Shown: positions 8,385 through 29,077, counted from the stretch's first letter. The stretch: 64,000 bases of DNA from Actinomycetota bacterium (GCA_030650795.1 JAUSDJ010000017.1:388077-452076), one strand, 5' to 3'. Numbers and translations: made by a program. The notes: generated from the letters alone by a model not told the origin.

Positions 8385-9926
8385 TTAGCGCTGGAAGCTC
8401 ATACGACGACGCTCAGTCTCAGGATCAAAGCCTTCGGTAGCGAGTTGTAGGTGTTGAACCGAGTCCTCAGGAGCCGCATTGCTTGCCCAATCCGCCAAAG
8501 GTCGATCGGCAAGGCATGCATGGGCAAGTTCATAATATGCCGGACCGACATTGGGATGGTCGAGCAATTCATGCATACGATTGAGGTTCGTAGCTGTCAA
8601 GACATCACGAGTCGCAAGCGGAATAACGCCAACAACTGGCATGCCCAGCCCGGCTGCAAGGACTTGTTCCTGCTCCATACCAACATTTGCCGCAGATTGA
8701 TTGACGACAATTCCCAACTTCTCTCGGGAGATGCCTAATCCGGACTCCTCCAGTGGAGACGTGATTTCGCGCAAAGCGCGAGCCATGCCTTGGATTGCTG
8801 TGGAAGCCAAGTTGGTGACGAACAGGATCTCATCTGCTTCCACCAATGCCACACTTGCAATAAGGGGTTCCAGGTACAGAACGCTGGTGTCAATGACAAT
8901 GACATCGAACATTCGCTGGAGACTTCTGACGATCGCCCGGTAGAAATCAGGTCCGACCGCATCTGCTGTACGAGGACGGATTGGCGCCAAGAGGCAGTAC
9001 ACGTCCAAGGTCTCAGCCTTGACAAGGCTGCTCCGGATGCACTCTTCGTCCCATACCGGTTGCACCCTGATGTTCAATGCTGTCGGCATGAACCGGCCAA
9101 TCAGCGATGCAACCTGACCGTCACGAGTGTCCAGATCCACAATGCACACGGACAAGGGAGCGCCCGCCTGCTTAGACGCGCGGGCGATCGCAGCGGCGAG
9201 CATGATGGAGGCGGTGGATTTGCCTGAGCCGCCTTTACTGGAAGTGACGGTGATCGTGGTCTGACCGGGCGGCTTGGCACGATTGAGCAGTTCCATCGAA
9301 GCGGCAGCAGGAACCTCTGGCGTCAAGGAATCTTCTGATTGTGGCTCTCCGATCCCACCAATGAACGGCAGGGCCGGCATTCGAAGGGCAAGAGTTCCAT
9401 TTCTTACTGCATTGGCATCATCGCCCCGCATTCCCAGGATGACATCGATGTCAGCTGGGAGCGGCTCGGGAAACTTCACTAAGTCTTCGGTGTACTGGGC
9501 AATGCCTTGCAGTACCGCCCTCCCTCCAAAATGAAGGTCAAGGAAATGCACAACTATCTGATTGGGATCAAGCTCCTGCGATATCGCATAGGCCTCAACT
9601 TGCGCCCAAAGTGCATCCCGGGTGCGCTGATGTGCAGATGCCACGAAGACTCGCGCACCAGCATCAGCCATCGTCACAATTGCTTGCGCCGTTTGGGCAA
9701 TCTCACGCGCCTCATGAGCCTGACCGACGGCCAGGGAATCCGAGAACACCAGCACTCGAGCACGCGAACTGATGCGGCCAGCAGCCAGCGCTGCCCACAT
9801 CGCCTCAATTGATTCCTGACGTTCTTCCAATCGCCACGATGCACCAGATGCACCGAGCAGAGAATACAACTGCGGTTCCCCGACGACGATGATCTGCGTG
9901 CCGCTCTCCTGCGGTTCAACGCTCAT
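8385..9926 (-). CDS. ParA/MinD-superfamily ATPase with receiver-like N-terminal domain (TadZ/CpaE/Ssd-like)
   Basis: Deviant Walker A (VTSSKGGSGKSTAS) and MinD-like core (IVDLD..., VIVIDT). The N-terminal ~130 aa has a beta-alpha pattern (IIVVGEP.., VLVFSDSL.., RVFVASA). ATGA overlap with the upstream gene. Confidence 0.75.
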   Translation of the reverse strand: MSVEPQESGTQIIVVGEPQLYSLLGASGASWRLEERQESIEAMWAALAAGRISSRARVLVFSDSLAVGQAHEAREIAQTAQAIVTMADAGARVFVASAHQRTRDALWAQVEAYAISQELDPNQIVVHFLDLHFGGRAVLQGIAQYTEDLVKFPEPLPADIDVILGMRGDDANAVRNGTLALRMPALPFIGGIGEPQSEDSLTPEVPAAASMELLNRAKPPGQTTITVTSSKGGSGKSTASIMLAAAIARASKQAGAPLSVCIVDLDTRDGQVASLIGRFMPTALNIRVQPVWDEECIRSSLVKAETLDVYCLLAPIRPRTADAVGPDFYRAIVRSLQRMFDVIVIDTSVLYLEPLIASVALVEADEILFVTNLASTAIQGMARALREITSPLEESGLGISREKLGIVVNQSAANVGMEQEQVLAAGLGMPVVGVIPLATRDVLTATNLNRMHELLDHPNVGPAYYELAHACLADRPLADWASNAAPEDSVQHLQLATEGFDPETERRRMSFQR

Positions 9927-10300
9927 TTCTGGGACCCCCTCCGTTCCGCAATCAAGTTGGCTGGACTGAGTCCGGCCGGCCCGTACAGGAGAAAAGCACG
10001 CTTGTGTTCTTGCTCAACTCTGAAGACGGAGTCACTCAATTCCTCGGCGGATACCGGTGATTCCTGCTGATCCTCGGCTTCCAATCCCGCAGCCCCGGTG
10101 GGAGATCCAGTCTCACCAGAAAAGATCCGGATTCCTTCAATGAGCGCCTGCGAAACTTGCAGATCCCCATGCTCGTCACGATCGGAGAGGAGGCCAATGT
10201 CTGCGTCGTCGATTGGCGAGTGGGTAAGCCGGTCAGCCATTTCGGTCTGATCGACCTTGCCGAATACGGAGCACGAGCCTTCGATGGGTTGATCACTCAT
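9923..10300 (-). CDS. Hypothetical acidic protein (125 aa)
   Basis: Start at the internal ATG at 10300 (8-nt overlap, ATGAGTGA, with the upstream stop). Its stop overlaps the ParA-like start (ATGA). No motif recognised. Confidence 0.5.
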   Translation of the reverse strand: MSDQPIEGSCSVFGKVDQTEMADRLTHSPIDDADIGLLSDRDEHGDLQVSQALIEGIRIFSGETGSPTGAAGLEAEDQQESPVSAEELSDSVFRVEQEHKRAFLLYGPAGLSPANLIAERRGSQK

Positions 10301-10727
10301 GAGCACTCCTCGGTTGTGACTGATCCGAATGCCAGTCGGACTCTGCGAGTTCACCATCGACAAAGTCGTCTAGTTCGGCCAACCAGGCTTGGGTTTCGTG
10401 CTGCAGATCAAGTGATGTGACGGGCACATCGTCGGGAACTCCAGAATGGCGATGCCAGGCGATCGACCAGGAGACCGCACAGTCGCGAGCTTGGCAAGCC
10501 ACCGCCTTGTGGTGGAGTTCGTCGCCCTCACACACACGGGCTTGCGCGCTCAACCGAATGGATCGCGAATGACCCGGCGGGCGATCAACGTCAAGTTCGA
10601 CGGTGTGAAATGAGCGCTTCTCCGTATCGTCATTGTCAGCGACTGGAACGACCGCAGTGACCCGACCGGTCCCCGAGCGCATGACAAACGTGAGCCCCTC
10701 TGCGTCCTTTTTGATCCAGCCCAGCAT
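10293..10727 (-). CDS. Hypothetical protein (144 aa)
   Basis: AAGGAGG RBS 40 nt downstream of the pilD stop. No motif recognised. Confidence 0.55.
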   Translation of the reverse strand: MLGWIKKDAEGLTFVMRSGTGRVTAVVPVADNDDTEKRSFHTVELDVDRPPGHSRSIRLSAQARVCEGDELHHKAVACQARDCAVSWSIAWHRHSGVPDDVPVTSLDLQHETQAWLAELDDFVDGELAESDWHSDQSQPRSAHE

Positions 10728-10767
10728 GGTTCTGCCTCCTTACGATGAGTATCGGTTCCCTTTGACA

Positions 10768-11571
10768 TCACAAGCCCATCAAGTCTGAATAGGCTCCCCA
10801 AACCGGCTCTGCAATGAGCAAGCCGAGAAGGGAGCCGATGAGAAGAAATGGCCCGAACGCCAAACGCGAGCCCCGCTGAGCACGTCCCGAAATCAGATAG
10901 ACGATTCCAACAACTGCGCCAACGAGGAAGCCGGCGAACAAGCCGACCGCCGCATACTCCATCCCCAACCAGCCAAGAGTCGCGCCAAGGATGGGCGCCA
11001 GTTTGACGTCCCCAAAGCCCATCCCACGTCCGGCAGTAAGCAGCCAGAGTCCCCCAATCACCGAAATCCACAGCAGCGCGCCGCCAAGTGCAGGTAGCCA
11101 GTGCCCTACACCTGTGACAAGCTGGCTCGCGGCCAGACCTACCACGGCAATGGGATACAACGGCAGCACAATCGCGTCGGGCAGGCGCTGGGTACGCGCA
11201 TCGATCACTGCCAAGGCCAGACCGGCACTGGCAAGAGTCAGCAGAAGTGGCAGCAGCGATGCCTGCTCCACCACAAACAATGACCAGTACGCCAGAGCAA
11301 CCCACAGAGTTGCATTAGCGAGTTCGACGAGCGGGTACTGCCACGAAATCACGCCGCCGCATGTACGACATCTACCACGCAAGACCAACCAGGAGAGCAC
11401 CGGAATGTTGTCCCGCCAGCGCAACTGACTTCCACAGTCTGGACATGCTGATGCCGGGTGAATGACCGATCGATGCTCTGGCACCCGCGCGATCACCACG
11501 TTCAAGAATGAACCGATCAACAGCCCCAGGACACCGAGCGCGGCGACGATTGCTGCTGCCACATCACTCAC
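10768..11571 (-). CDS. pilD: Prepilin peptidase / N-methyltransferase (A24 family)
   Basis: FLNVVIARVP, CPDCGSQLRWRDNIPVLSW...CRTCG zinc motif, GMGFGDVKL catalytic Asp motif, polytopic membrane protein. GTG start at 11571 (GTGAGTGA overlap with the upstream stop). The ORF-track extension to 11955 lies inside the upstream gene. Confidence 0.85.
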   Translation of the reverse strand: MSDVAAAIVAALGVLGLLIGSFLNVVIARVPEHRSVIHPASACPDCGSQLRWRDNIPVLSWLVLRGRCRTCGGVISWQYPLVELANATLWVALAYWSLFVVEQASLLPLLLTLASAGLALAVIDARTQRLPDAIVLPLYPIAVVGLAASQLVTGVGHWLPALGGALLWISVIGGLWLLTAGRGMGFGDVKLAPILGATLGWLGMEYAAVGLFAGFLVGAVVGIVYLISGRAQRGSRLAFGPFLLIGSLLGLLIAEPVWGAYSDLMGL

Positions 11572-12652
11572 GTAGTGCGGCTCTTCGAGCGATCGCGGCC
11601 TCAAGACGCTCACGCACCTGACGGGCCTGGCTCTCGGCTGCCACGAGTTCAGCTCGCAAGGTTGCGATTGCGAAGTCCCCCCCTCCATCCAAGACTGGCG
11701 CAACTGCAAGGAGGGGAACAGGCAGCACAGCAACCTCGACGATGGAGGGAGGCAGGTTCTGAGGTTCAGATTCCTCGGCTGACTCCTCTGGCTCCTCAAA
11801 CTCGTCGAGCACCAACTGCTGAGTCTGGAGCAAAGGCGTGATGTCGGCATGGAAGGGCACTTGATCGAACGCCTCCGGCACCAAAATGGATTCGCAAGGG
11901 AGCCCGGTGCCCTCACCAATCTCCACGACTCCGGCGTGCACCAAACCAACCACAAGGTGGGTTGCCTCGGCTCGAGTCAGGCCCAGCGCATTGGCCGCCT
12001 TATCAAGGCTTGATTCCAAGGCCAGAGCGGCAAGCAGCGATGCGAATTCTGGTAACTCAAACCCAGTTGGGAGCAGGACACCCGTTGCATTCCAGGTTAT
12101 TTCAGACACTGATGAAGCGGGTGCGATCTGTTCCCACTCCTGGCTCATGCGACGACGGCGAATTCGGGCGGCTTGTTGAAGTTCGTCGAAGTTGAGGGGC
12201 ATGGTGCACACCTCATTTGTCATGGCTCCGTCCACGAATCGTGACGTCACTTCCGAGCATTCGAGTACCGCTCCAAGCCCAGCGAGCAGGAACTCTTGAT
12301 GGATATTGGCCAAGGAGTCAGCAGTGATCCACCCACGCTCCAGGGCCATTCGTCCCAGACTGGCATGAGTCGAATCGGGGTCGGACTCGTGCTCGAGCTG
12401 CGCCAGTTGGCGCGCATCGATCAGACCTGCAGAGACAAGTCGGCGACCTACCGGGACGTCGTACCCCATGAGTTCTATCGCGTAGACTTGGCCGTCCACG
12501 AAGAAGAGTCGGGCCATTGACCCGGACAGGGAGGCAGTCACCTCAAGGCAACCGGTGCGCGAATCAGCGCAAACGCGATCGACCTCCGGATGGGATGCCA
12601 AGGGCAGGCCAATTTTCGTGGGTGGCTTGTGCCGGCCAAGGTGTACGCGCAT
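11564..12652 (-). CDS. DUF4388-like protein with central HTH-like segment and acidic/coiled-coil C-terminus
   Basis: The N-terminus (GCLEVTASLSGSMARLFFVDGQVYAIE...GRRLVSAGLIDARQL) fits the DUF4388 pattern. LGLTRAEATHLVVGLVHAGVVEI looks winged-helix-like. GAGGAGGA RBS. Its stop overlaps the pilD start. Confidence 0.5.
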   Translation of the reverse strand: MRVHLGRHKPPTKIGLPLASHPEVDRVCADSRTGCLEVTASLSGSMARLFFVDGQVYAIELMGYDVPVGRRLVSAGLIDARQLAQLEHESDPDSTHASLGRMALERGWITADSLANIHQEFLLAGLGAVLECSEVTSRFVDGAMTNEVCTMPLNFDELQQAARIRRRRMSQEWEQIAPASSVSEITWNATGVLLPTGFELPEFASLLAALALESSLDKAANALGLTRAEATHLVVGLVHAGVVEIGEGTGLPCESILVPEAFDQVPFHADITPLLQTQQLVLDEFEEPEESAEESEPQNLPPSIVEVAVLPVPLLAVAPVLDGGGDFAIATLRAELVAAESQARQVRERLEAAIARRAALRE

Positions 12653-12682
12653 CGATCCTCCTCATCGGGAGTATCGGACTGC

Positions 12683-13390
12683 TCAGGCGCTGGGGGACTC
12701 TTGCAAGCCGACCTCGTGGATGGGGCACTGCAGTGCCCCAGCGTGATCGACGGTGCCAACGGTGAAGCCCGGACGCCCTGTACACCCAGCGCGTGGATCT
12801 TCCCGATACATCCGACCGATACCGGTATAGGTGTCGGAGCGATTGACGGCTGCGGCTCGATCGGCAGCTTCCGATCGGTTCGTGATCCGCACGACATGCT
12901 CCGGGATGATCTCCAACTGCTGATCGTGAGTGGTGACCAACCATCGATAACGATCGACTGCAAATGTCCCGGCCACGGTGCGCTCAGTTCGATCGGATTG
13001 CAAGACGGTTACCGAGCAGCGGGTCCCGACGTACGGGCCCACATCTACTGTTTCGCCCGAGGCCAGTGCGTAGGTCTGGGCAAGACTGCCAGCGAATTTC
13101 AGGTATCCGAGCCGGAAGTCATAGCACTTTCCCACATGTTCACGAATCCGACTCTCCGCCTCATCGAAGGCAAGAGCGGTTCCCTCAACAAGCAATCGGG
13201 GCATGCCTTGAATGCTGTGCATTCGGTCGCAGAGTTCCCAGTTATAGGCCCGGATGTTTCGTTTCTCGCCGGGGCTCTGTGGATCAACCTCTCGACCTGT
13301 GATGCGGGCAACGAAATGCTCTGTCACCCAGTTCCACATCAGGATTCCCGGCGAGTCGGTGTAGGTCCAGGGGATCACCTGTGCCGGCAT
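12683..13390 (-). CDS. Hypothetical protein (235 aa)
   Basis: Internal ATG at 13390, 5 nt after the upstream stop. The ORF-track start at 13528 would overlap the upstream gene. No motif recognised. Confidence 0.5.
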   Translation of the reverse strand: MPAQVIPWTYTDSPGILMWNWVTEHFVARITGREVDPQSPGEKRNIRAYNWELCDRMHSIQGMPRLLVEGTALAFDEAESRIREHVGKCYDFRLGYLKFAGSLAQTYALASGETVDVGPYVGTRCSVTVLQSDRTERTVAGTFAVDRYRWLVTTHDQQLEIIPEHVVRITNRSEAADRAAAVNRSDTYTGIGRMYREDPRAGCTGRPGFTVGTVDHAGALQCPIHEVGLQESPSA

Positions 13391-13395
13391 GCTCG

Positions 13396-14523
13396 TCAAA
13401 GCAGTTCCGTCGCGTCCATCTGCGCAAGAGCCCGCTTCAGTGCCGCTGTCGCTGTCTTTGGCAGGATTTCGAGTGCCCTTGCCAACTCTGCTCGATTCAA
13501 TCCCTCCCAGAAAGTCATATATGCGCAAGTCAATGCCAGTGGGTCTTGGGCACGGCGGGAATTGGCGTCATCGTCACAGACGGCATCCAGCAATGCGCGG
13601 GTGACTGCTGCAGCCCGGGCATACGATTCGGGTCCATCGGATCCGGCCGAGGAACCCTCCCGTCTGCCGGCGGCGACCGAATCCATGTCGGTCTCCCCCA
13701 CGATGATTTCCTGATAGTTGCGCAGATTCGAGAGCGTGCTGATCGCATCCTGTCGCCTTCGCAGCTCAGTGACCGTCACCCCAAGTGCCAGGGCGCGGTC
13801 GGTTTCACTCGCGGCACGACCGGATGCCGTCATCGCCGCCTCGTTTGCCCGATGCAAGGCGATGCGATCCCCGACCAGAGTTCGCCCATAGGCCGCTCGG
13901 GCTGCATCCTGAGGCCAGGTACGGATTTTGCCGAACATGAACGCCGTGAAATTGAGGGTGCCGTTGCGTCCTGTGCGATCGGCATCGAAGCGATCGGCGT
14001 GATCATGGATGAACAGGTACATCAGCGACCGGACATCTTCGTCTTGGACGAGGTCAAGTTCCGTTGCGAGTTTGCGACGGATTCCATACGATCGCGAGAA
14101 CAGCCAAGCGGTGCACTCGGCAAGCATCTCCGTCATCAGCCCGTCGGGAATCGAGTCCAGATCCCTGAACGGCACTGCCTCCTCTACCCGGGCATTGACG
14201 ATCTCAACTCCATGCTGCTGGCTCCAGTCGCGCACCCGATCCCGGGTCTGATACCCCATTCCCGCCGGCACCCAGATCCGGTATTGGCCGTCACTCCACT
14301 GGCGCGTCCAGACCTGATCCCCAAGGTCGCGCACGAGTGCCGGCAGATCGCACGGCTCTACGGTGGACCAGTGCACACGGTCGCAAGTCATTGCGGGTGC
14401 CATCGCCAGTATTTCCCGCTCATGCCTGCCGCGGACTATGAGATCGGGCACTCGACGCCCCAGCCGCTGGTTGGAAGTGACGATGAGCTCTTCGTCAATA
14501 GGCGGTCTCTGTTCGGTCTTCAC
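13396..14523 (-). CDS. Sigma-70-family-like protein with ~160-aa unrecognised N-terminal domain
   Basis: Region-2-like segment (LMYLFIHDHADRFDADR..NFTAFMFGKIRTWPQDAARAAYGR) and region-4 HTH-like segment (FWEGLNRAELARALEILPKTATAALKRAL). GTG start overlaps the upstream stop (TAGTG). Judged by eye only. Confidence 0.45.
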   Translation of the reverse strand: MKTEQRPPIDEELIVTSNQRLGRRVPDLIVRGRHEREILAMAPAMTCDRVHWSTVEPCDLPALVRDLGDQVWTRQWSDGQYRIWVPAGMGYQTRDRVRDWSQQHGVEIVNARVEEAVPFRDLDSIPDGLMTEMLAECTAWLFSRSYGIRRKLATELDLVQDEDVRSLMYLFIHDHADRFDADRTGRNGTLNFTAFMFGKIRTWPQDAARAAYGRTLVGDRIALHRANEAAMTASGRAASETDRALALGVTVTELRRRQDAISTLSNLRNYQEIIVGETDMDSVAAGRREGSSAGSDGPESYARAAAVTRALLDAVCDDDANSRRAQDPLALTCAYMTFWEGLNRAELARALEILPKTATAALKRALAQMDATELL

Positions 14524-15017
14524 TAGGCCATCTGCTCAAGCTTGGCCACCGGTGGCAGGCTGGAGTCTGCAAGCGCAGTACTCACTTGGAGGCCTCGCGC
14601 CAGCATCGCCATCGGTGCCGCGGGGTCCGGAATCTCGACCAAGCAGGGATCGTAGGCAGCGAGGTCCTCGATGACCCGCCGAACCAGCAGCACAGCCAAG
14701 CATGATCGTGGACTGGCCAACTTGACGTCCACCAGCGAGCCCAGGCTTACTGCGAGGGTCAGATGCAAACGGGTGTCCTCTGCATCCACCCCGATTAGCC
14801 GCGTGGGCACCGACGGGAAGTGCTCAAGAATCACGGCCAGCCCACGCGCCGCAAGACGAGCAGCCTGGTGAGTAGGAGCCAATCTCAGGCCGATCTCGAC
14901 TTCACGTTCAATACCCGAAAACTCGGAACCGAACTGCGACAGGGGAAGCGCATCCGGAATGAATTGTCCGGTCATTTGACTGGTCATAGTAAGACTATGA
15001 CACGGCTTTTGCGTCAC
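14523..15017 (-). CDS. Hypothetical protein (up to 164 aa; start uncertain)
   Basis: First ORF after the pilA hairpin and an AT-rich patch. Alternative ATG starts at 14987 and 14975. No motif recognised. Confidence 0.45.
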   Translation of the reverse strand: MTQKPCHSLTMTSQMTGQFIPDALPLSQFGSEFSGIEREVEIGLRLAPTHQAARLAARGLAVILEHFPSVPTRLIGVDAEDTRLHLTLAVSLGSLVDVKLASPRSCLAVLLVRRVIEDLAAYDPCLVEIPDPAAPMAMLARGLQVSTALADSSLPPVAKLEQMA

Positions 15018-15077
15018 GGCAACTTAAATATGTTTACAAGGCGTGAATTCTTCGAGCCGCAATCTGGCTGCCTGATG

Positions 15078-15118
15078 ACTGTGGGGCCGGTGCCAGACTC
15101 GGCTCCCGGCCCCACAGT
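15078..15118 (-). terminator. Stem-loop downstream of pilA (13-bp perfect stem, 15-nt loop)
   Basis: actgtggggccgg (15078-15090) pairs perfectly with ccggccccacagt (15106-15118), 25 nt after the pilA stop. There is no U-tract, which is common in actinobacterial terminators. Confidence 0.45.
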
Positions 15119-15142
15119 CAGGGTCGTGCTGGGTGGAGTCGG

Positions 15143-15598
15143 CTAGACGACGTCCGCTGCTGGAGCCGTGCCCGCCGGGCAGCCAGCCGCGACTACAGCG
15201 GCTGTCGGAGTGATCAAGCCACCGCCCGCTGAGTCGTAGTAGGTCAGGCTGTCCGCGAGCGCCTCGGAGTTGCAGGCCACGATGGTGAAGGAGTTTCCGG
15301 TGGCCGCAACAGCAACCGACAGCACATTGCCAACGGAGATCTTCGCGTCGTTCGTGGTGATGAGGTTGGTTCCACCGGCAGGGTAGGCGCTGTTCTGCGT
15401 GTACGCCGTCTCCATCAGTGTGGCCACATTGCGCACGTCAGATTCAACTGAAGCCGTACGCGCCGAGTTGCGCTGATTCAAGAAAACGGGGATCGCAATT
15501 GCGGCGAGAATTCCAATGATGATGACGACGACGAGAAGCTCGATCAGGGTGAAACCCGATTCGCGTTCGTCCCGCATCCTTGTTAAGCGAGTGAGCAT
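15143..15598 (-). CDS. pilA: Type IV major pilin
   Basis: Class III signal (..RESG|FTLIELLVVVIIIGILAAIAIP). C-terminal Cys pair (C..C) forms the D-region. AGGAG RBS 8 nt before the ATG at 15598. Confidence 0.85.
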   Translation of the reverse strand: MLTRLTRMRDERESGFTLIELLVVVIIIGILAAIAIPVFLNQRNSARTASVESDVRNVATLMETAYTQNSAYPAGGTNLITTNDAKISVGNVLSVAVAATGNSFTIVACNSEALADSLTYYDSAGGGLITPTAAVVAAGCPAGTAPAADVV

Positions 15599-15649
15599 GT
15601 GATGACTCCTGATCAAACTACCCCTCGTCGGGGTTCAGCCCCCGATGGG

Positions 15650-15679
15650 CTGATACAAAGGGTTTCGGACCGATTGCAG
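15650..15679 (-). promoter_or_regulatory. Candidate pilA promoter: TGCAAT-N17-TATCAG with GTCCGAAAC in the spacer
   Basis: The minus strand reads cTGCAATcgGTCCGAAACcctttgTATCAG, about 50-80 nt upstream of the pilA ATG. The same architecture occurs at 29048-29077. Confidence 0.35.
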
Positions 15680-15690
15680 GAGTTGGCCCC

Positions 15691-16911
15691 TCACTTCTTG
15701 ACGAGGTCGAAGATATTGAAAATAGGCAGGTACATCGCCACGATCATCCCTCCGACAAGTGCACCGAGCATCATGATCATGATGGGTTCAATGAGCGCCA
15801 TCAGTTGCTCCGTTGTCGACTCAACCTCCTCGTCGTAGAAGTCGGCGATCTTTCCCAACATGTGATCTAGGGCTCCGGTGTCTTCGCCCACTGCCATCAT
15901 CTGCACCACCATGTCAGGAAAAACGCCATGCTCGGCAAGTGGTTTTGCGATGCTCGACCCCTGACGCACACTCTCCTTCACGTCATCGACCGCGCGACGG
16001 ATAACAATGTTTCCGGCTGTGTCACCAACGATGTCAAGCGCAACGAGGATCGGGACTCCTGCGCGCAGCAGTGCAGCGAAGTTACGGCTGAAGCGGGCCA
16101 GCGCGATCTTTTGGAAGAGGTGACCGAACACCGGCAAGCGAAACTTCATCGGGTCAACAATTGCGCGCAGCCACGGTTCGCGACTCACATGGTGGTACCA
16201 CCAGACCAGCAGAATGCTTCCGAGGATGATCGGGAAAAGGAAGTACGGATTCTTCACCAGATTTGACAGGTTCACCAGAAATTGGGTGGGAGCGGGAAGC
16301 TGTCCGCCGAGGTTGTTGAACATTTCGGAGAAGACCGGAACCACGAAGATGAGCATCGCTGTGGTGACGATCACTGCAATGACCCCTACTGCGACTGGAT
16401 AGGTCAACGCGGCCTTGATTCGACCACGCAGACGCACATCGGCCTCGATCGACTCAGCGATCTGCAGCATGGTCTCGTCCAGGAAGCCACCGACTTCGCC
16501 TGCTCTAATCATGTTGACCATGATCGGTGGGAATTCCTCATATTCCGCAAGGGATTCCGACAGTGCCGCGCCTCGTTCGACATCGTCACGGACACGAAGG
16601 AGGACTTCGCGAAGCCGTTGGCTCTCAGACTGCTCGGCCAGGATCGCCAGACACCGCAGTATCGGCAGGCCCGCACCGAGCATCGTGGCGAACTGGCGAG
16701 TCATGACAGCGAGGTCCTTGCCCTTGACCTTGGGCTTGCGAAGGTTGATATCACGATTCCAGCCGCCTGCCTTGGCCTCGACCGCTATCGGTGTCAGCCC
16801 GAGTTGACGTATGCGTGCAATGGCATCGGTCTCGCTCGATCCCCTGATCAGTTGCTCGACCAGCCGACCGTTGCGGGCGCGCGCTCTGACGAGGTACTCA
16901 ATCTGAGGCAT
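15691..16911 (-). CDS. pilC: Type IV pilus platform protein (GspF/PilC family)
   Basis: Two T2SS-F domains and polytopic membrane topology, with typical length. Start at ATG 16911 (MPQIEYL...); the alternative is 16944. Confidence 0.9.
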   Translation of the reverse strand: MPQIEYLVRARARNGRLVEQLIRGSSETDAIARIRQLGLTPIAVEAKAGGWNRDINLRKPKVKGKDLAVMTRQFATMLGAGLPILRCLAILAEQSESQRLREVLLRVRDDVERGAALSESLAEYEEFPPIMVNMIRAGEVGGFLDETMLQIAESIEADVRLRGRIKAALTYPVAVGVIAVIVTTAMLIFVVPVFSEMFNNLGGQLPAPTQFLVNLSNLVKNPYFLFPIILGSILLVWWYHHVSREPWLRAIVDPMKFRLPVFGHLFQKIALARFSRNFAALLRAGVPILVALDIVGDTAGNIVIRRAVDDVKESVRQGSSIAKPLAEHGVFPDMVVQMMAVGEDTGALDHMLGKIADFYDEEVESTTEQLMALIEPIMIMMLGALVGGMIVAMYLPIFNIFDLVKK

Positions 16912-18193
16912 TGGTGTCTCTTCCCAGTAGCTGGTCAAGTTCAAGGGCGTCTGAGCATTTCTCGCGCGCTACGTCGTACTCCACTGACCCGGCATTAACC
17001 AATTCAGCGAGGCTCTGATTCAGTGTGTGCATTCCATGTCGCGACCCTGTTTGCAGAGCCGAGGGGATCGACTGCAGCTTGCCCTCGCGGATCAGATTGC
17101 GGATCGCCGGCGTGGCAATCATGACCTCGGTCGCCGCGACGCGCCCTGCTGCATCAACCGTTCGACACAGGGTCTGGCAGACCACCGCTTCGATCGAATT
17201 GGCCAACTGCGTGCGGATCTGCGCCTGCTGCTCCGCCGGGAACACGTCGATTATTCGATCGATGGTGCTGGCAGCAGAGCTCGTATGCAGCGTGGCAAAG
17301 ACAAGGTGGCCTGTCTCCGCGGCCGTCAACGCAATCGAGATCGTCTCCAGATCACGCATCTCACCAACCAGGATCACATCCGGATCCTGACGAAGCGCGT
17401 GCTTGAGCGCATTGGCAAAAGACCAGGTGTCGGTGCCCACTTCGCGCTGATTGACGACGCAGGATCGGTGCTTGTGGACGAATTCGACGGGATCCTCGAT
17501 CGTGATGATGTGCCCCTTGCGCGTGCGATTCACCCGATCAACCATTGCTGCCAAAGTGGTGGACTTCCCCGAACCGGTCGGGCCGGTCACAAGCACCAGG
17601 CCGCGCGCAAGCTTGCACAGCTCGCCTAGTTCTGCCGGCATGTCCAAGGCCTCCAAGGACTTGATCTCCCAGGGAATGGCACGGAGGACTGCCCCCATGA
17701 AGCCTTGCTGCTGCAACAGGTTCACGCGAAAGCGTGCGGCACCGGGCAGCGCATAGGCTAAGTCGAGTTCCTTGTTCTCCTCAAAGACCTGCTTCTGACG
17801 GTCGGTCAGCACCGCGTAGAGCGCCGCCTTGATCTCCTGGCCAGAGAACGGCTGATATCCCACTACCGGTTGCAGATCGCCGTTCACACGAATCAGCGGA
17901 GGTGAGCCCACGCTGAGGTGCAGATCGGAGCCACCACTTTCCAATAGTTGAACGAGCAGCTCATCAAGGACGAAGCCGCCCATCAACCCCGATCGCTCTT
18001 CGCGGGGACGCGCCACGATCCCGATATCACCGGGCGCCGGCGGCAGGGCAGGTGCGACAACCGTCGATCTTGCTGCGGCTTTGGGTGCAGACGCATGGCC
18101 GCCAGGTGACATGAGACCGATCGGCGGCACAGTGGGCAAGACCAGCTCGACTGGCTTGGCCGAGACCGGCAAGTTGAAATCCTCGTCATTCAT
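16898..18193 (-). CDS. pilT: Twitching-motility retraction ATPase PilT with Pro/Ala-rich N-terminal extension
   Basis: Walker A GPTGSGKSTT and the PilT signature AIRNLIREGK. ATG at 18193 (the ORF track uses TTG at 18208). An internal ATG at 17983 would give a canonical-length PilT. Confidence 0.9.
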   Translation of the reverse strand: MNDEDFNLPVSAKPVELVLPTVPPIGLMSPGGHASAPKAAARSTVVAPALPPAPGDIGIVARPREERSGLMGGFVLDELLVQLLESGGSDLHLSVGSPPLIRVNGDLQPVVGYQPFSGQEIKAALYAVLTDRQKQVFEENKELDLAYALPGAARFRVNLLQQQGFMGAVLRAIPWEIKSLEALDMPAELGELCKLARGLVLVTGPTGSGKSTTLAAMVDRVNRTRKGHIITIEDPVEFVHKHRSCVVNQREVGTDTWSFANALKHALRQDPDVILVGEMRDLETISIALTAAETGHLVFATLHTSSAASTIDRIIDVFPAEQQAQIRTQLANSIEAVVCQTLCRTVDAAGRVAATEVMIATPAIRNLIREGKLQSIPSALQTGSRHGMHTLNQSLAELVNAGSVEYDVAREKCSDALELDQLLGRDTNASD

Positions 18194-18220
18194 CGGCGGC
18201 CCTTTCAAGAGTGACCACGA

Positions 18221-19900
18221 CTAGGCGATCACGCGCAGGACTTCGCTGATCGTGGTCAGCCCCTGTGAGACCTTCAGCCAGCCGTCTTGTCGAAGGGTGC
18301 GCATGCCGGCATCGATCGCCACCCGACTTACTTCATCGGAAGTGGCCCGGCCGAATGCGAGTCGGCCGATGTCCTCAGACATTGGCATCACTTCATGCAG
18401 GCCCATGCGCCCTCGGTAGCCGGTGTTCGCGCAGCTCGAGCAGCCTTTCGGCTCGTAGAAGGTGGGATCCAGATCCGGCTGATACTCAAAGTGCACCACC
18501 GCCAATTCAGCAACGCTCTTGTTCACGCGACGCTTGCAGTCAGGGCACAGTCGCCGGGCCAGGCGTTGACTTGTGGCGCAAGCGAGTGCCGAGCTCACCA
18601 GGAATGGCTCGATCCCCATTTCGATGAGCCGCGTGATCACACTCGGTGCATTGTTGGTATGCAGCGTGGTCAGAACCAAATGACCGGTGAGCGCTGATTC
18701 CACCGCGATCTGGGCGGTCTCATAGTCGCGAATCTCACCGATCAGGATGACATCAGGATCGGCACGCAGAATCGAGCGCAGAGCTGAGGCGAAGGTGAGC
18801 CCTGCCTTGGCATTCGTCTGAATCTGGTTGATGCCCGGGATGCGGTACTCGACGGGATCCTCGACCGTCACGATGTTGATCTCAGGCTTTGTGACAGTGT
18901 TCAGAGTCGCGTACAAGGTCGTGGACTTTCCTGATCCGGTCGGGCCACTGACAATCAGCATGCCATTGGGTCGCTCGAAGGAGTCCCGCCAATGACTCAG
19001 GTTCGGCGCAGAGAAGCCGAGATCCGATAACGTCATCTGGGCAGAGGAATTGTCCAGAATGCGCATCACGATCTTCTCGCCCCACACAGTCGGCAAGCAG
19101 TTGACCCGCAGATCGACCTTCTTGCCTTGCCAGATCAATGACAGTCGTCCATCTTGCGGTACTCGGCGTTCGGCGATGTTCATTTCAGCCATGATCTTCA
19201 GTCGCGAGATCAAGGCCGACTGCATCTCCTTGGGTGCCGGCGCCTGCTCTTTGAGCACGCCATCGATCCTGAATCGGATTCGGATGTAGTCCTCGCTGGG
19301 CTCAACGTGGATATCGGAGGCCTTGTCGGAGATCGCCTGATTCAGCAGCAGATTGACATAGCGCACCAGCGGAGCATCAGACGTCGACACCACTGGTGCC
19401 TGGATGTCGATGAGCTTCTCGTCGACGAGCATGTCACGCACGAGTTCGCCGAGTTCATACTCTGCGCGGTACAACTGATTGATGCGAATAGCGATCTCAG
19501 CCTTCATTGCACAGGCGAATCGCACAGAATGATGGGTGATCGTCTCCAGATCCTCACCGATCTGCCAATTGGCCGCCGTCTGCGAATCGGCGACTACGAC
19601 AAGGGTCTGTGCCTCGAATGCGACGGGGATCACCTGGTACCTGCGTGCCTGATCACCCGTGAGCAGGTGCACCGCCGACTCATCCACCTTCAGGCTCATG
19701 ATGTCGATAAACTCCAGTCCAGCGGCTTGCACTGTCGCGCGCACGATGTCCTTCTTTGTGATACTTCCCTGCTGCACCAAGATATTGAGCACAGGCTCGC
19801 CCCGCGAAGTCGCGACCGCTTCCGCGGCCGCCTTCTGCTCTCTCGTGATGAGGCCACTCATCACCAGGATTTCGGCGACAGAGCCTGAAGAACTATTCAC
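18221..19900 (-). CDS. pilB: Type IV pilus assembly ATPase (GspE/PilB family)
   Basis: N-terminal GspE_N/MshEN-like domain, Walker A GPTGSGKSTTLY, tetracysteine CPDC...CSSC motif. GTG start overlaps the upstream stop (GTGAATAG). Confidence 0.9.
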   Translation of the reverse strand: MNSSSGSVAEILVMSGLITREQKAAAEAVATSRGEPVLNILVQQGSITKKDIVRATVQAAGLEFIDIMSLKVDESAVHLLTGDQARRYQVIPVAFEAQTLVVVADSQTAANWQIGEDLETITHHSVRFACAMKAEIAIRINQLYRAEYELGELVRDMLVDEKLIDIQAPVVSTSDAPLVRYVNLLLNQAISDKASDIHVEPSEDYIRIRFRIDGVLKEQAPAPKEMQSALISRLKIMAEMNIAERRVPQDGRLSLIWQGKKVDLRVNCLPTVWGEKIVMRILDNSSAQMTLSDLGFSAPNLSHWRDSFERPNGMLIVSGPTGSGKSTTLYATLNTVTKPEINIVTVEDPVEYRIPGINQIQTNAKAGLTFASALRSILRADPDVILIGEIRDYETAQIAVESALTGHLVLTTLHTNNAPSVITRLIEMGIEPFLVSSALACATSQRLARRLCPDCKRRVNKSVAELAVVHFEYQPDLDPTFYEPKGCSSCANTGYRGRMGLHEVMPMSEDIGRLAFGRATSDEVSRVAIDAGMRTLRQDGWLKVSQGLTTISEVLRVIA

Positions 19901-21056
19901 GGAATCCCGCCCGTCTCAGCGCCACAAGGAGATCCGTCACATTCGATGCCACCGTCTCGGCCTCGCGAAGAGACACGTCGCCTGCGAGTACGAGTCGGAC
20001 GGCATCCTGCTCGAAAGAACGCATGCCGTAGTACTCACCATCGGTGATGATCTCGCCCAGCAGCGCTGTCTTCGTGGAGTCGGCCACAGCCTCCTTTACC
20101 CGTGGAGTCGCCACGGCAACCTCGCATATGAGCACGCGCCCATCTCCACGCGCAGACGCCACCAGTTGCTGGCAGAGGATCCCTTGCAGGGACTCGGCAA
20201 CCGAGGCTCGCGCCTGGCGCTGCTCGTCTGCCGGAAACATGTCGACGATGCGATGAACGGCATCGACGACCGACTTTGCGTGGAGGCTGGCGAGCACCAG
20301 ATGTCCTGTCTCGGCTGCCTGCAAGGCCGTACGCATGGTCTCGACGTCCCTGATCTCACCGATCAGGATGACGTCGGGATCTTGGCGAAGACCGGATCTC
20401 AGTGCCTGCGCAAAGTCGAAAGTGTCGGTATGAAGTTCGCGCTGGCTGATCGTGGCCAACTTGTTCCGATGAATGAACTCAATCGGATCCTCGATGGTGA
20501 GGATGTGACAGCGACGCTCCTCATTGATGAGGTCCACGAGAGCGGCCAGAGTGGTGGACTTGCCCGAGCCCGTCGGTCCGCAGACCAACACCAACCCCGC
20601 AGTGGCGCGCGCGAGGGTGCCTGTCACATTCGGGAGTCCCAGCTCCACCAGACTGGGAACCTGCTCCCGGACAAGTCTCAGGACCATCGCATCTGCCCCG
20701 CGAGCACGGTAGGCATTCACGCGAAATCGGGCTGCCGAGTTCGAGACAAGGGCGAAATCGCACTCGTGGTCGCGAATGAACGCCGCCTGATCGGCTCCAC
20801 TCGTCATCGCCTGCCCGACGAGTGCTGAAGCATCCTGCTCGGTGAGATCGGGCAGATCGAGAGGGAACAACTGACCTGAGACACGCAGGAGCGGTGGGGC
20901 TCCGGCTCGGACATGCACATCGGAAGCGCCAAGCGCCACTGCCGCCGTGAGTATCTGCTCGAGTTCAACAGGCGTAGTCGCCAAGTCACCCTCGACTGCG
21001 CTCGCCCCGGCCTCAAGTGGAGCGGCACCGTCGAATTGCGAAACCAGTAGAGCCAT
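19893..21056 (-). CDS. Second PilT-family ATPase (PilT2/PilU-like); start uncertain
   Basis: Walker A GPTGSGKSTT and a PilT-like core. The AIRNLIRE signature is replaced by ATPRVKEAV. A TTG at 20984 would give a canonical N-terminus (see findings). Confidence 0.8.
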   Translation of the reverse strand: MALLVSQFDGAAPLEAGASAVEGDLATTPVELEQILTAAVALGASDVHVRAGAPPLLRVSGQLFPLDLPDLTEQDASALVGQAMTSGADQAAFIRDHECDFALVSNSAARFRVNAYRARGADAMVLRLVREQVPSLVELGLPNVTGTLARATAGLVLVCGPTGSGKSTTLAALVDLINEERRCHILTIEDPIEFIHRNKLATISQRELHTDTFDFAQALRSGLRQDPDVILIGEIRDVETMRTALQAAETGHLVLASLHAKSVVDAVHRIVDMFPADEQRQARASVAESLQGILCQQLVASARGDGRVLICEVAVATPRVKEAVADSTKTALLGEIITDGEYYGMRSFEQDAVRLVLAGDVSLREAETVASNVTDLLVALRRAGFRE

Positions 21057-21192
21057 ACCAGTGGTTTCGGATCAACTTCGCAGCGCTAGCCCGACCGCGC
21101 GGAAATACCGACACGAGAAGTATCGACCCAAGCAGGCCCTCCGCCCATGGTTGCGCCGATACCCCCGAAGAGGGACGACGAGGAGGATGAGC

Positions 21193-22335
21193 ATGGCCAA
21201 GGGCGAGTTCTGCCTCATAGGGCTCGATATCGGCACGACCGGCATCCGCGCCGTGGAACTTCGCCGATCGCGCTCGACTGCTGATCTCGAAATCGTCCGA
21301 ATGGCCTGCGCGGAATTGCCACCGGGAGTCATGTCCGACGGTGCGGTCATCGACCAGCCCGCGTTGGCCAAGGCCATCCGTGCACTCTGGCGGCAGGGAC
21401 GCTTCCGGACTCGGCGCCTGGCCTTCGCTGTTACTGATCCCAACGTGCTCACGCGTCAGCTGGATCTGGCATGGATGCCCCCAGACGATTTCAAAGCCGC
21501 ACTTCGATACCAGGTGCAAGGCTCACTGCCATTCGACTTCGATTCCGTCGCGCTCGACTACCACCTGCTCGCCGAGATCGAGCGGACGGACACCAAAGGT
21601 CAGGCGACCACCGACAACAGAGTTCTTGTGGTGGCAACGAATCGTGAGCACACGGCCGCGATCGCGTCCGCAATCCGCAAGGCGGGCCTTGAGCCCGTCG
21701 TTGCCGACCACGCGCCCTTTGCTCTCATTCGTTCGGTCTGCCAAGGGCATTTGCCCAACGACGCAAGCGTGCACGCGGTAGTCGATATCGGAGCCGACCA
21801 GATGACCGTGGTCATTCACTCGGAAGGCCAGCCTCGGTTCATCCGCACCCTCAGCCAACTTGGGAGCAATCTTGCCACCCGATCGATCGCGAGTGCGCTC
21901 GATATCGACAGTGACGAGGCCGAGGCGCTCAAGCGCTCAACAGGGTTGAACGGGGCAGCCCCAACCGTGGTCTCCATCGCAGAATCGAGCGTGTTCAGCA
22001 CGATCGTGGATTCGCAAGCCGCCGAGATCGACCAGCGCTCTTTGGTAGCCCTCAGCGAACTCAATACCTGGGCCGCCACCATCGTCGGTGAGATCGCCAA
22101 TTCCATCGACTACTACGCATCGGGCATAGGTGTTGCTCCCGTCGAATCAGTTCTCCTTGTAGGGCGTGCGGCGAATCTCGATGGATTGCGCGAGCGCATT
22201 GCGACTCAATTGCCCTATCCAGTGCAAAGTGCCGACGCAACCATGGGCCTCAGCGTCAATCCGAAGCTTCGAGAGTATGCACAGGATGCTCAGGCCGCGC
22301 TGGCCATAGGTCTGGCCATGGCGGTTAAGACATGA
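21193..22335 (+). CDS. pilM: Type IV pilus assembly protein PilM (actin-like ATPase fold)
   Basis: GLDIGTTGIRAVEL N-terminus. AGGAGGA RBS 5 nt before the ATG at 21193. The ORF-track extension to 20947 overlaps pilT2 on the opposite strand. Confidence 0.85.
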   Translation: MAKGEFCLIGLDIGTTGIRAVELRRSRSTADLEIVRMACAELPPGVMSDGAVIDQPALAKAIRALWRQGRFRTRRLAFAVTDPNVLTRQLDLAWMPPDDFKAALRYQVQGSLPFDFDSVALDYHLLAEIERTDTKGQATTDNRVLVVATNREHTAAIASAIRKAGLEPVVADHAPFALIRSVCQGHLPNDASVHAVVDIGADQMTVVIHSEGQPRFIRTLSQLGSNLATRSIASALDIDSDEAEALKRSTGLNGAAPTVVSIAESSVFSTIVDSQAAEIDQRSLVALSELNTWAATIVGEIANSIDYYASGIGVAPVESVLLVGRAANLDGLRERIATQLPYPVQSADATMGLSVNPKLREYAQDAQAALAIGLAMAVKT

Positions 22336-26997: not shown

Positions 26998-27652
26998 TGA
27001 CAAGGTAGACCGTCTGGTCGAGCGTCTGGGCGGACGAAGAATCGGTGATGAGGAGCTCGACTTTGGACAGTGAATCGCGCTGCAATGCAGTCAGAGTCCC
27101 GTCCGCTGCTGGGGCGACAATGGTCGAGACTCCATTCACTGTCGTCCAATACTGGAAGTGCAATGACGGTAATTGATTGCCCTCAACTTGAACCAGCACT
27201 CGCGTATTGGCCGAACTTGCATAGGTCGGGACTCCGTTGGTGAGCACGGCGGCTCCCGATGCAAAGTCCGGTGTCCACACCTGGCTGGTGATGCCGCTCA
27301 AGGTATTCAGCAGACGGACCTTGTACGGGATTCGGTCTACTGGCCCCGTGCCGGAGTAGGTCGTGAATGTCATCGCTGTCGTGGTCGCCTCAGTGATCGC
27401 CTCTGGCGGTGTTGGCCCCTCGACGGGATTGTCGGCGTATCGCAGCAAGCGCGACATCCACTCCATTGCATTCTGCTGCTGAATCTGAGTTGCTGAACTC
27501 TGCTCAGCCACCTGGATCGTCTGGATGCCTCGAATGAACAGAGTCGTGACGATTGCCATGAGCAAACTGAAGATCCCCATGGCGACGATCAACTCAATCA
27601 AGGTGAATCCTGCGTCGTCAGCGGTAACTGTGCCGCGCAACCTATTCCTCAT
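26987..27652 (-). CDS. Minor pilin (PilW-like) with prepilin-type N-terminus
   Basis: ..DDAG|FTLIELIVAMGIFSLLMAIV. ATG at 27652 forms an ATGA overlap with the upstream stop. Confidence 0.75.
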   Translation of the reverse strand: MRNRLRGTVTADDAGFTLIELIVAMGIFSLLMAIVTTLFIRGIQTIQVAEQSSATQIQQQNAMEWMSRLLRYADNPVEGPTPPEAITEATTTAMTFTTYSGTGPVDRIPYKVRLLNTLSGITSQVWTPDFASGAAVLTNGVPTYASSANTRVLVQVEGNQLPSLHFQYWTTVNGVSTIVAPAADGTLTALQRDSLSKVELLITDSSSAQTLDQTVYLVNER

Positions 27653-29047: not shown

Positions 29048-29077
29048 CTTATAGGGAGTTTCGGACAGATATTGCAG
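29048..29077 (-). promoter_or_regulatory. Candidate minor-pilin operon promoter: TGCAAT-N17-TATAAG with GTCCGAAAC in the spacer
   Basis: The minus strand reads cTGCAATatctGTCCGAAACtcccTATAAG, about 30-60 nt upstream of the start, inside an AT-rich intergenic region. Confidence 0.35.

Follow-up and report, generated by a model that had tools for sequence, protein, structure and literature searches.

A divergent sigma-28-like protein and its partner gene in a conserved four-gene block of an actinobacterial type IV pilus cluster

The four-gene block and its conservation

The 64-kb stretch of DNA analysed here (JAUSDJ010000017.1:388077-452076, called the window, whose numbering is used for coordinates) belongs to a metagenome-assembled genome (MAG) of an uncultured member of the Actinomycetota and carries a large type IV pilus cluster. 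Between the major pilin gene pilA and the prepilin peptidase gene pilD, the minus strand encodes a small orphan protein (O164), a 375-aa sigma-like protein (O375, identical to Q7L55_05770), a second orphan (O235) and a PATAN (DUF4388) protein (O362). We tentatively propose, in a reading that falls a little short of an even chance, that these genes form a conserved two-layer regulatory sub-operon of the actinobacterial type IVa pilus cluster, with O375 as an accessory sigma-28-type factor. The first layer would be an ancient core, the coupled pair of O164 and the sigma-like protein, to which O235 and the PATAN protein would have been added in this clade only.

The block consists of O164 (14523..15017, 164 aa from a GTG), O375 (13396..14523, 375 aa), O235 (12683..13390, 235 aa) and O362 (11564..12652, 362 aa). 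These are the four open reading frames (ORFs) and coordinates listed by an earlier sequence-only reading of this DNA, and the junctions that it gave also match the sequence exactly: the O164 stop overlaps the O375 GTG (TAGTG), a 5-nt gap separates O375 from O235, a 30-nt gap containing GAGGAGGA lies between O235 and O362, and the O362 stop overlaps the pilD start in a GTGAGTGA overlap. By this arrangement O375 is predicted to be translationally coupled to O164, and pilD to O362. The identity of the flanking genes was borne out by an N_methyl match in the pilin (pilA, 15143..15598, minus strand, start ATG 15598; 7e-8) and by the A24_N_bact (2.7e-35) and Peptidase_A24 (1.3e-13) matches of the peptidase (pilD, 10768..11571, minus strand). 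A strong hairpin just 3' of the pilA stop (15075..15120, minus strand), with a 15-bp perfect outer stem, divides pilA from the block; its z score is -3.4 and none of 200 shuffled sequences folded equally well.

A scan at one genome per species retrieved 40 homologous loci, all from MAGs labelled Nanopelagicales, Actinomycetes or Actinomycetota, and the host group of the four-gene block is uncultured freshwater actinobacteria. The window proteins served as tblastn queries to score gene presence, and a locus entered the count for a gene only if it was long enough to include it. O164 was found in 36 of 37 loci, O235 in 38 of 39 and O362 in 36 of 38, together with PilA (34/34), PilD (31/33), a 144-aa gene downstream of pilD (O144, 32/33) and a gene for a ParA-like ATPase (26/27). 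The order of the block is that of the window in about 40 related species-level genomes. The exception is locus L033, where O235 and O362 are missing and the sigma-like gene stands directly before pilD. The four genes are thus real, well beyond chance ORFs, and their co-occurrence at related pilus loci agrees with the earlier view of the block as a functional part of the pilus locus. A passenger or mobile insertion was ruled out by the fixed order in these genomes and by an unremarkable base composition.

O375 and its partner O164

The sequence-only reading had assigned sigma regions 2-4 to the C-terminal part of O375 and had found nothing recognisable in its N-terminal part, and both statements were upheld by structure prediction. 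An AlphaFold (AF2) model built on 118 sequences (mean predicted local distance difference test score, pLDDT, 82) shows a family-specific alpha/beta domain of about 115 aa at the N-terminus (about residues 12-125), a helical block corresponding to sigma2 and sigma3 (residues 129-267), a disordered acidic linker resembling region 3.2 (residues 269-297) and a sigma4 helical block (residues 298-374). When this model was compared with the PDB by Foldseek, the top 50 matches were all sigma factors, the best being B. subtilis SigD (1.8e-5), S. venezuelae WhiG (1e-4) and sigma-28/FlgM complexes. The leading matches had a probability of 1.0 over about 250-270 aligned columns; by rank 50 the probability was about 0.84, and the aligned columns ranged from roughly 240 to 340 across the top 50. 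The low TM-scores (template modelling scores) of these matches would fit differing domain orientations. O375 is therefore predicted to have a sigma fold made of sigma2, sigma3, linker and sigma4, with FliA/WhiG as the nearest branch.

Sequence profiles point in the same direction at lower scores. The O375 family profile matched only group-3 sigma factors (SigF, WhiG, FliA) among PDB sequences, with E values of 0.006-0.5, and aligned with the WhiG protein encoded in some of the related loci at an hhalign E value of 8e-5 (20% identity, 176 columns). Sigma70_r4_2 was matched by 25 of 30 family members and Sigma70_r3 by 16 of 30, mostly sub-threshold, with best scores in relatives of 3e-6 and 7e-5, respectively, which are below the curated thresholds. 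For distant members the best NCBIfam model was TIGR02479 (FliA_WhiG), at 41.8 bits against a cut-off of 189.6. The window protein itself gave a single sigma match in Pfam (Sigma70_r4_2, 13.3 bits against a cut-off of 25.7, E 0.065) and no match in NCBIfam. The claim of sigma domains therefore falls below every curated cut-off when judged by profile, but holds through the r3 and r4 matches of relatives and through the fold.

A profile search of 1.84 billion representative proteins returned only 92 relatives, with no obviously canonical sigma factor among them. All full-length relatives keep the N-terminal domain joined to the sigma part, and a few short, weak matches cover the sigma part alone. 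Taken together, model and profiles place O375 within the sigma-70 family as a line that split off deeply from the FliA/WhiG (sigma-28) branch and has diverged far from it. In the family, region 2.3-3.0 contains the invariant basic/aromatic residues K199, W203, R209, G213 and R214, a conservation which suggests that a nucleic-acid-facing surface has been retained. The residues by which sigma-28 factors read the -10 and -35 elements (TYA..RIRGAI.DELR..DW.PRSVR and the sigma4.2 helix SESR..Q) are replaced in O375 by NF.AFM.GKLRTWPQDAAR.AYGR and LPKTAAAAV.R. Only the D..R....GR skeleton of the reading region is left, and the sigma4.2 helix, VSESRACQVHGRAI in WhiG, is VLPKTAAAAVxRVL in the O375 family.

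O164 was first taken as 164 aa. The ORF is present, but its true start is more likely ATG 14987, which gives 154 aa; NCBI calls a 154-aa protein and relatives begin at this position. A promoter-like layout just upstream, repeated in locus L001, favours the same start: in the window TTGCCG-N17-CATAGT (14994..15022, minus strand) ends 6 nt before ATG 14987, and L001 has TTGTGT-N17-CATGCT-N6-GTG. By its sequence the window element is a candidate for a housekeeping-like O164 promoter. A scan of the locus with the sigma-70 consensus promoter found nothing.

O164 is predicted to be a small alpha/beta protein, and it has no relative in Pfam, NCBIfam or PDB profile searches. A homologue of O164 lies directly upstream of every distant sigma-like homologue examined, where the gene was recognised by the O164 family hidden Markov model (HMM) at 5e-25 to 4e-6; the match in a Blastococcus flagellar cluster was 3e-19. 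These matches show that O164 and the sigma-like gene form a fixed pair. The sequence-only reading had suggested both flanking orphans as partners of the sigma-like protein. This suggestion stands for O164, which is its universal partner, but not for O235, which is absent from the distant loci. Its idea that they are anti-sigma or partner-switching components of a canonical kind was rejected: neither O164 nor O235 has a STAS, RsbW/SpoIIAB, FlgM, ZAS or RsiG feature in Pfam, NCBIfam or PDB profiles, and neither gave a family, PDB sequence or motif match. A search of the window and of loci L001-L040 for the RsiG signature E(X)3S(X)2R(X)3Q(X)3D turned up no plausible candidate for a partner gene; the sole match was an unrelated 497-codon ORF in L006. 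Internal duplication was also dismissed, as hhalign comparison of O164 or O235 with the sigma-like protein gave a probability of 0.2%.

In one subclade a conserved element of the form TAGCCGGnTATATCC-N8-9-GGGACCAAnTACCC, with the palindrome GGATATATCC inside it, precedes the O164 gene by about 100-150 nt (L003-L012, L014, L018, L020, L025, L027 and L036; for example L006:9417). It occurs once per locus, solely upstream of the O164 operon, and the window lacks it. It may serve as an operator or as a promoter. As a second promoter class read by O375 it was rejected, since it occurs once per locus in one subclade and is not found upstream of whiG.

The pair also occurs outside these pilus loci. 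Distant sigma-like relatives of 500-570 aa stand in the order O164-like gene, sigma-like gene, A24-type peptidase-like gene, with Flp-like pilins of 71-74 aa upstream and sbcCD and FtsK/TraB-like genes nearby. Where this neighbourhood was described gene by gene (L041, L043, L044/L045, L051 and L052), it comprised sbcD-sbcC, a Flp-like pilin (G/AETIE), a multi-pass membrane protein, a coiled-coil protein, the A24-like peptidase, Amidoligase_2/KTSC genes and an FtsK/TraB-like gene with an intein. These genes together may represent a mobile element. In Blastococcus sp. TML/M2B the homologue (WP_200492754.1, named 'flagellar biosynthesis protein FliA' by NCBI) and an O164 homologue, of 358 and 162 aa, respectively, stand at the end of the operon flgN-flgK-flgL-fliW-csrA, where there is no peptidase gene, and a canonical FliA/WhiG gene is divergent from this operon. 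A second metagenomic locus likewise has the pair at the end of flgN-flgK-flgL-fliW-csrA with a FliA/WhiG gene alongside. The pair thus accompanies three surface-filament contexts: a type IVa pilus, an A24 peptidase with Flp-like pilins, and a late flagellar operon. In flagellar loci of the Blastococcus type, the sigma-like gene is followed by GCCGATAT, which has GTCCA 17 nt upstream of it (L046:11122-11153, L048:7249-7280) and precedes two uncharacterised genes of 113 and 253 aa. A conserved CTGCCGAAG block precedes the O164-like gene.

WhiG-type promoters and the role of the pair

Alignment of the pilA upstream regions of all loci revealed an invariant motif, G(G/T)(T/C)CCGA(A/T)AC. In the window it forms a -10 element, GGTCCGAAAC (15662..15671, minus strand), which is found in the same place in 36 of 36 loci. 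Further copies in the window are CCGATAC in the O235-O362 gap (12671..12677, minus strand; 9 loci including the window), which is possibly an internal WhiG-type promoter for O362-pilD; CCGATAC upstream of O144 (10749..10755, minus strand; the window and 28 related loci); CCGAAAC exactly 7 nt before the ATG of the PilT-family ATPase gene pilT1 at 21056 (21064..21070, minus strand; 23 loci), a spacing that would imply a leaderless transcript; CCGATAC upstream of the divergent pilM operon (21156..21162, plus strand); and CCGAAAC 42 nt upstream of the minor-pilin operon (29058..29064, minus strand). The window has 18 copies of CCGA(A/T)AC against 11.2 expected, and the six pilus intergenic copies point at the downstream operon. 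At many sites GGTTCA lies 16-17 nt upstream of CCGA(A/T)AC; the pilA promoter of the window has no clear TCA -35 element.

The published flagellar/WhiG consensus has TAAA at -35 and GCCGATAA at -10, and that of WhiG1-type promoters is CTCA-N16-17-GCCGA (PMC12871210). The CCGA(A/T)AC sites fit both, the WhiG1 type more closely. The features compared were CGA at positions 3-5 of GCCGA, a TCA-type -35 element 16-17 nt upstream and a start codon within 200 bp; nCCGA(A/T)AC upstream of pilA, pilT1 and O144, with GGTTCA at that distance in many loci, agrees with them. The pilus structural operons thus carry predicted promoters of the WhiG1 type. Control of type IV pili by WhiG has been described in Rubrobacter and is predicted for other Actinomycetota (PMC8325347, PMC12871210).

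Canonical sigma genes were searched by tblastn with E. coli FliA as the query. Among the 27 loci that reach far enough, 13 have a canonical FliA/WhiG gene inside the pilus cluster, alongside the 375-aa gene (L005-L012, L018, L020, L025, L034 and L036; for example L012:15061-15861, minus strand). Its position is between O144 and the ParA-like gene, with the opposite orientation, and one of these WhiG proteins passes TIGR02479 with 234.8 bits against a cut-off of 189.6. The sequence-only reading had proposed a dedicated, FliA-like transcriptional circuit. The locus does hold WhiG-type promoters, but these fit an ordinary WhiG. With WhiG1-like promoters in the locus and a canonical WhiG in 13 of 27 relatives, the sigma-like protein is not simply a FliA of the pilus. 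These relatives and the WhiG-type -10 elements at six window promoters indicate that it is probably not the main sigma factor of the locus and more likely either an accessory sigma or a regulator that belongs to a WhiG circuit.

In the proposed two-layer sub-operon, WhiG would drive the pilus structural genes, and the sigma-like protein would bind core RNA polymerase (RNAP) and act as an accessory sigma at another tier of the same cascade. Its activity would be set by O164 and, in this clade, also by O235. The PATAN protein would dock on the PilB/PilC motor and act post-transcriptionally. We infer the sigma factor assigned to each promoter, the binding to RNAP, the roles of O164 and O235 and the contact between PATAN protein and motor. 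Several observations weigh against this proposal. The window O375 passes no curated sigma model (Pfam Sigma70_r2/r3/r4, NCBIfam TIGR02479), the WhiG residues that read the -10 and -35 elements are not kept in it, and its sigma4 may recognise DNA weakly or in a different way. The analysis found no class of promoters attributable to O375 alone. No canonical whiG gene lies within the 64-kb window, where a poorly conserved 146-aa gene (minus strand, between O144 and the ParA/MinD-like gene) occupies its place. Finally, O164 and O235 resemble no known anti-sigma factor or sigma partner.

Two further explanations are both unlikely. In the first, O375 would be a dedicated pilus sigma factor that reads the CCGA(A/T)AC promoters, with the orphans as its anti-sigma or partner-switching components. 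O375 is the only sigma-like gene in every locus, and both in fold and in sequence it comes closest to the sigma-28 factors, whose -10 element is GCCGATAA and whose -10-reading skeleton D..R....(G/P)R(T/S) it partly keeps. Canonical whiG is lacking from the window and from 14 of the 27 related loci, and in one subclade CCGATAC also lies upstream of the O164 operon itself, which is compatible with autoregulation. However, the motif is the WhiG1 consensus and in 13 relatives canonical WhiG shares the locus with O375, so that no second reader is needed; the recognition residues of O375 are strongly unlike those of WhiG; and the orphans lack STAS, RsbW, FlgM, ZAS and RsiG features.

The second explanation takes the pair as the missing regulator of WhiG1. 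O375 would be a degenerate sigma-28 paralogue which, together with its partner, restrains or releases WhiG by binding it, by competing for core RNAP or by serving as a decoy, and so functionally replaces FlgM. According to a 2026 analysis, the partner that controls WhiG1 of the flagellar clade is not known, and nearly all flagellar clusters of actinobacteria lack FlgM. WhiG1-type promoters surround the pair in two of its three contexts. The pilus loci often include whiG itself. In Blastococcus and the second metagenomic locus, the pair closes the flagellar operon beside a FliA/WhiG gene with a CTCA-N16-17-GCCGA promoter (L046:5473-5501, minus strand), and WhiG1-type motifs also precede csrA and genes downstream of the pair. 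The alanine-rich sigma4 recognition helix of O375 is what a loss of DNA reading would lead one to expect. Against this explanation, the argument is one of guilt by association, the distant relatives beside A24 peptidases have no whiG within 10 kb, and the strong conservation of region 2.3-3.0 suggests a retained nucleic-acid-facing surface. We know of no anti-sigma factor derived from a sigma factor. It is similarly improbable, at the present weight of evidence, that the pair is a regulator of flagellar-clade WhiG1 in which the sensor-like N-terminal domain and the partner replace the FlgM checkpoint and couple the transcription of late filament genes, flagellar or type IV pilus, to the state of the machine.

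Least probable of all is that O375 is a pseudo-sigma scaffold in filament biogenesis with no role in transcription, acting for example with the prepilin peptidase: the order O164-like gene, sigma-like gene, A24 peptidase is seen again in L033 and in relatives that are very distant, a prepilin peptidase follows the sigma-like gene in two of the three contexts and O375 fails all curated sigma models, but the full sigma2/3/4 fold with its 3.2-like linker is kept at high model confidence, the Blastococcus context has no peptidase, and the peptidase is an enzyme integral to the membrane, in contrast to the four proteins of the block, which all look cytoplasmic.

Remaining genes of the locus and relation to known systems

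O235 is confined to pilus-type loci and is absent from the distant loci and from Blastococcus. None of its 163 homologues has a Pfam domain, and identity across loci is 48-66%. Its AF2 model (pLDDT 82.5) contains a five-stranded sheet with a helix (residues 9-89) and a small Sm/SH3-like barrel (residues 106-170), followed by a tail modelled with low confidence in which the alignment shows C203, H216, C222 and H225 to be invariant. These residues may form a metal site. The tail motif reads GCTGxPGFxVGTVDHAGxxRCPxHE (residues 203-225; window 12683-12790, minus strand). O235 has no significant PDB match by fold or by sequence profile. Its identification as PilZ or another known receptor of cyclic di-GMP (c-di-GMP) was rejected, since there is no Pfam match and no significant fold match, and only the small barrel has a likeness to Sm/SH3 folds.

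The PATAN component is of an already known kind. As had been claimed for the last gene of the block, O362 passes the Pfam DUF4388 model (PF14332, residues 28-158; 35.1 bits against a cut-off of 25, 1.6e-8) and stands next to pilD, into whose start its stop codon runs. A weak HTH_IclR match (E 0.054) covers residues 212-244. The order of its parts is a PATAN domain with a helical alpha-clip insertion, a winged-helix-like segment, an L.VPE.F motif conserved in the alignment, a low-complexity linker and a C-terminal coiled coil; no CheY-like receiver domain was found in Pfam/NCBIfam scans. Residues 68-119 match the MshEN/GspE_N-like model NF053729 at 23 bits, below the cut-off of 38. The MshEN c-di-GMP motif is RLGxx(L/V/I)(L/V/I)xxG(L/V/I)(L/V/I)xxxxLxxxLxxQ, of 24 residues, and inspection by eye showed that its leading Arg is not conserved among O362 orthologues. 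In Synechocystis the helical insertion of the PATAN domain resembles the N-terminus of PilB-type ATPases (bioRxiv 10.1101/2021.06.11.447907), which accounts for this weak match. There the domain also binds the N-terminal domains of PilB1 and PilC, and interaction with PilB and/or PilC is known for PixE, PixG and LsiR (bioRxiv 10.1101/2021.06.11.447907). The earlier account, which placed all four genes outside the canonical type IV pilus set, needs correction for O362 in that the PATAN domain already has a published link to the PilB/PilC motor.

In minus-strand order the cluster begins with pilT1 (19893-21056), followed by pilB (18221-19900), a gene for a second PilT-like ATPase (16898-18208), pilC (15691-16944) and pilA. 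The pilA leader peptide is MLTRLTRMRDERESG, directly followed by FTLIE. All loci conserve the 5' leader of pilA (15599-15661, minus strand, about 60 nt), which includes a first hairpin with compensatory variation at 4 of 6 predicted pairs and, ahead of the ribosome-binding site, a conserved CCCC...GAGGGG hairpin. An Rfam scan of 9000-22000, including this leader, found no riboswitch or known RNA at E <= 1. Downstream of pilD are O144 (10293-10727, minus strand), which has its own WhiG-type promoter and a product containing Cys and His, the 146-aa gene, and, as the last gene of the locus, that of a 513-aa ParA/MinD-like ATPase (8385-9926, minus strand); the latter recalls TadZ/CpaE of Tad pili, and its N-terminal 200 aa or so have no assignment. 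The divergent pilM operon starts at about 21200 on the plus strand. The minor-pilin operon (24712-29016, minus strand) has two genes with N_methyl matches (27649-29016 and 26987-27667) and is closed by a gene for a 763-aa protein (24712-27003) with no Pfam domain, which might be a tip or adhesin component.

The closest known relatives of O375 are the group 3 sigma factors FliA, SigD and WhiG. They share its fold of sigma2, sigma3, linker and sigma4 and are its best structural and profile matches, and O375 is encoded in a filament locus with -10 elements of the GCCGA type. O375 differs from them in scoring far below the TIGR02479 and Pfam cut-offs, in its extra N-terminal domain of about 115 aa and in other promoter-reading residues; it can coexist with a true WhiG in one locus and is always paired with an O164-family gene. 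In the RsiG-(c-di-GMP)-WhiG and FlgM-FliA switches, too, the gene of a small protein adjoins that of a sigma-28-type protein and is translationally coupled with it, within a regulon for motility or pili, but O164 is a predicted alpha/beta protein with no similarity to FlgM or RsiG. Actinoplanes missouriensis likewise has multiple sigma-28-type proteins for its flagellar and pilus genes (PMC12871210); judging from the text of that paper, these paralogues are FliA/WhiG proteins of canonical length, whereas the O375 family has its own N-terminal domain and partner and is much more divergent. O362 shares the PATAN domain with its alpha-clip insertion, and the genetic tie to a type IV pilus motor, with the PatA-type regulators (PixE, PixG, LsiR) and M. 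xanthus SgnC. The PatA-type regulators have a receiver domain, in place of which O362 has a winged-helix-like segment, a linker and a coiled coil, and unlike these PATAN proteins it is actinobacterial, encoded inside a pilus operon and coupled to pilD. No description of the O375 family or of the four-gene block was found in the literature searched.

The O375 family thus adds to the FliA/WhiG lineage of sigma-70 proteins an architecture and a fixed partner that are both new. If it proves to be only an accessory sigma factor, it would be a modest addition to known sigma diversity. For sigma evolution, it provides a sigma-28-like core fixed to an N-terminal domain that is overlooked by current Pfam and NCBIfam models, and O362 extends the link between PATAN proteins and pilus motors from cyanobacteria and myxobacteria to actinobacteria. 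The control of pili, flagella and sporulation by WhiG/FliA in Actinomycetota is an active field, in which the pair is a concrete candidate for the gap in WhiG1 regulation: it is tied genetically to WhiG1-type regulons in two filament systems, and one copy of it is present in the cultured genus Blastococcus.

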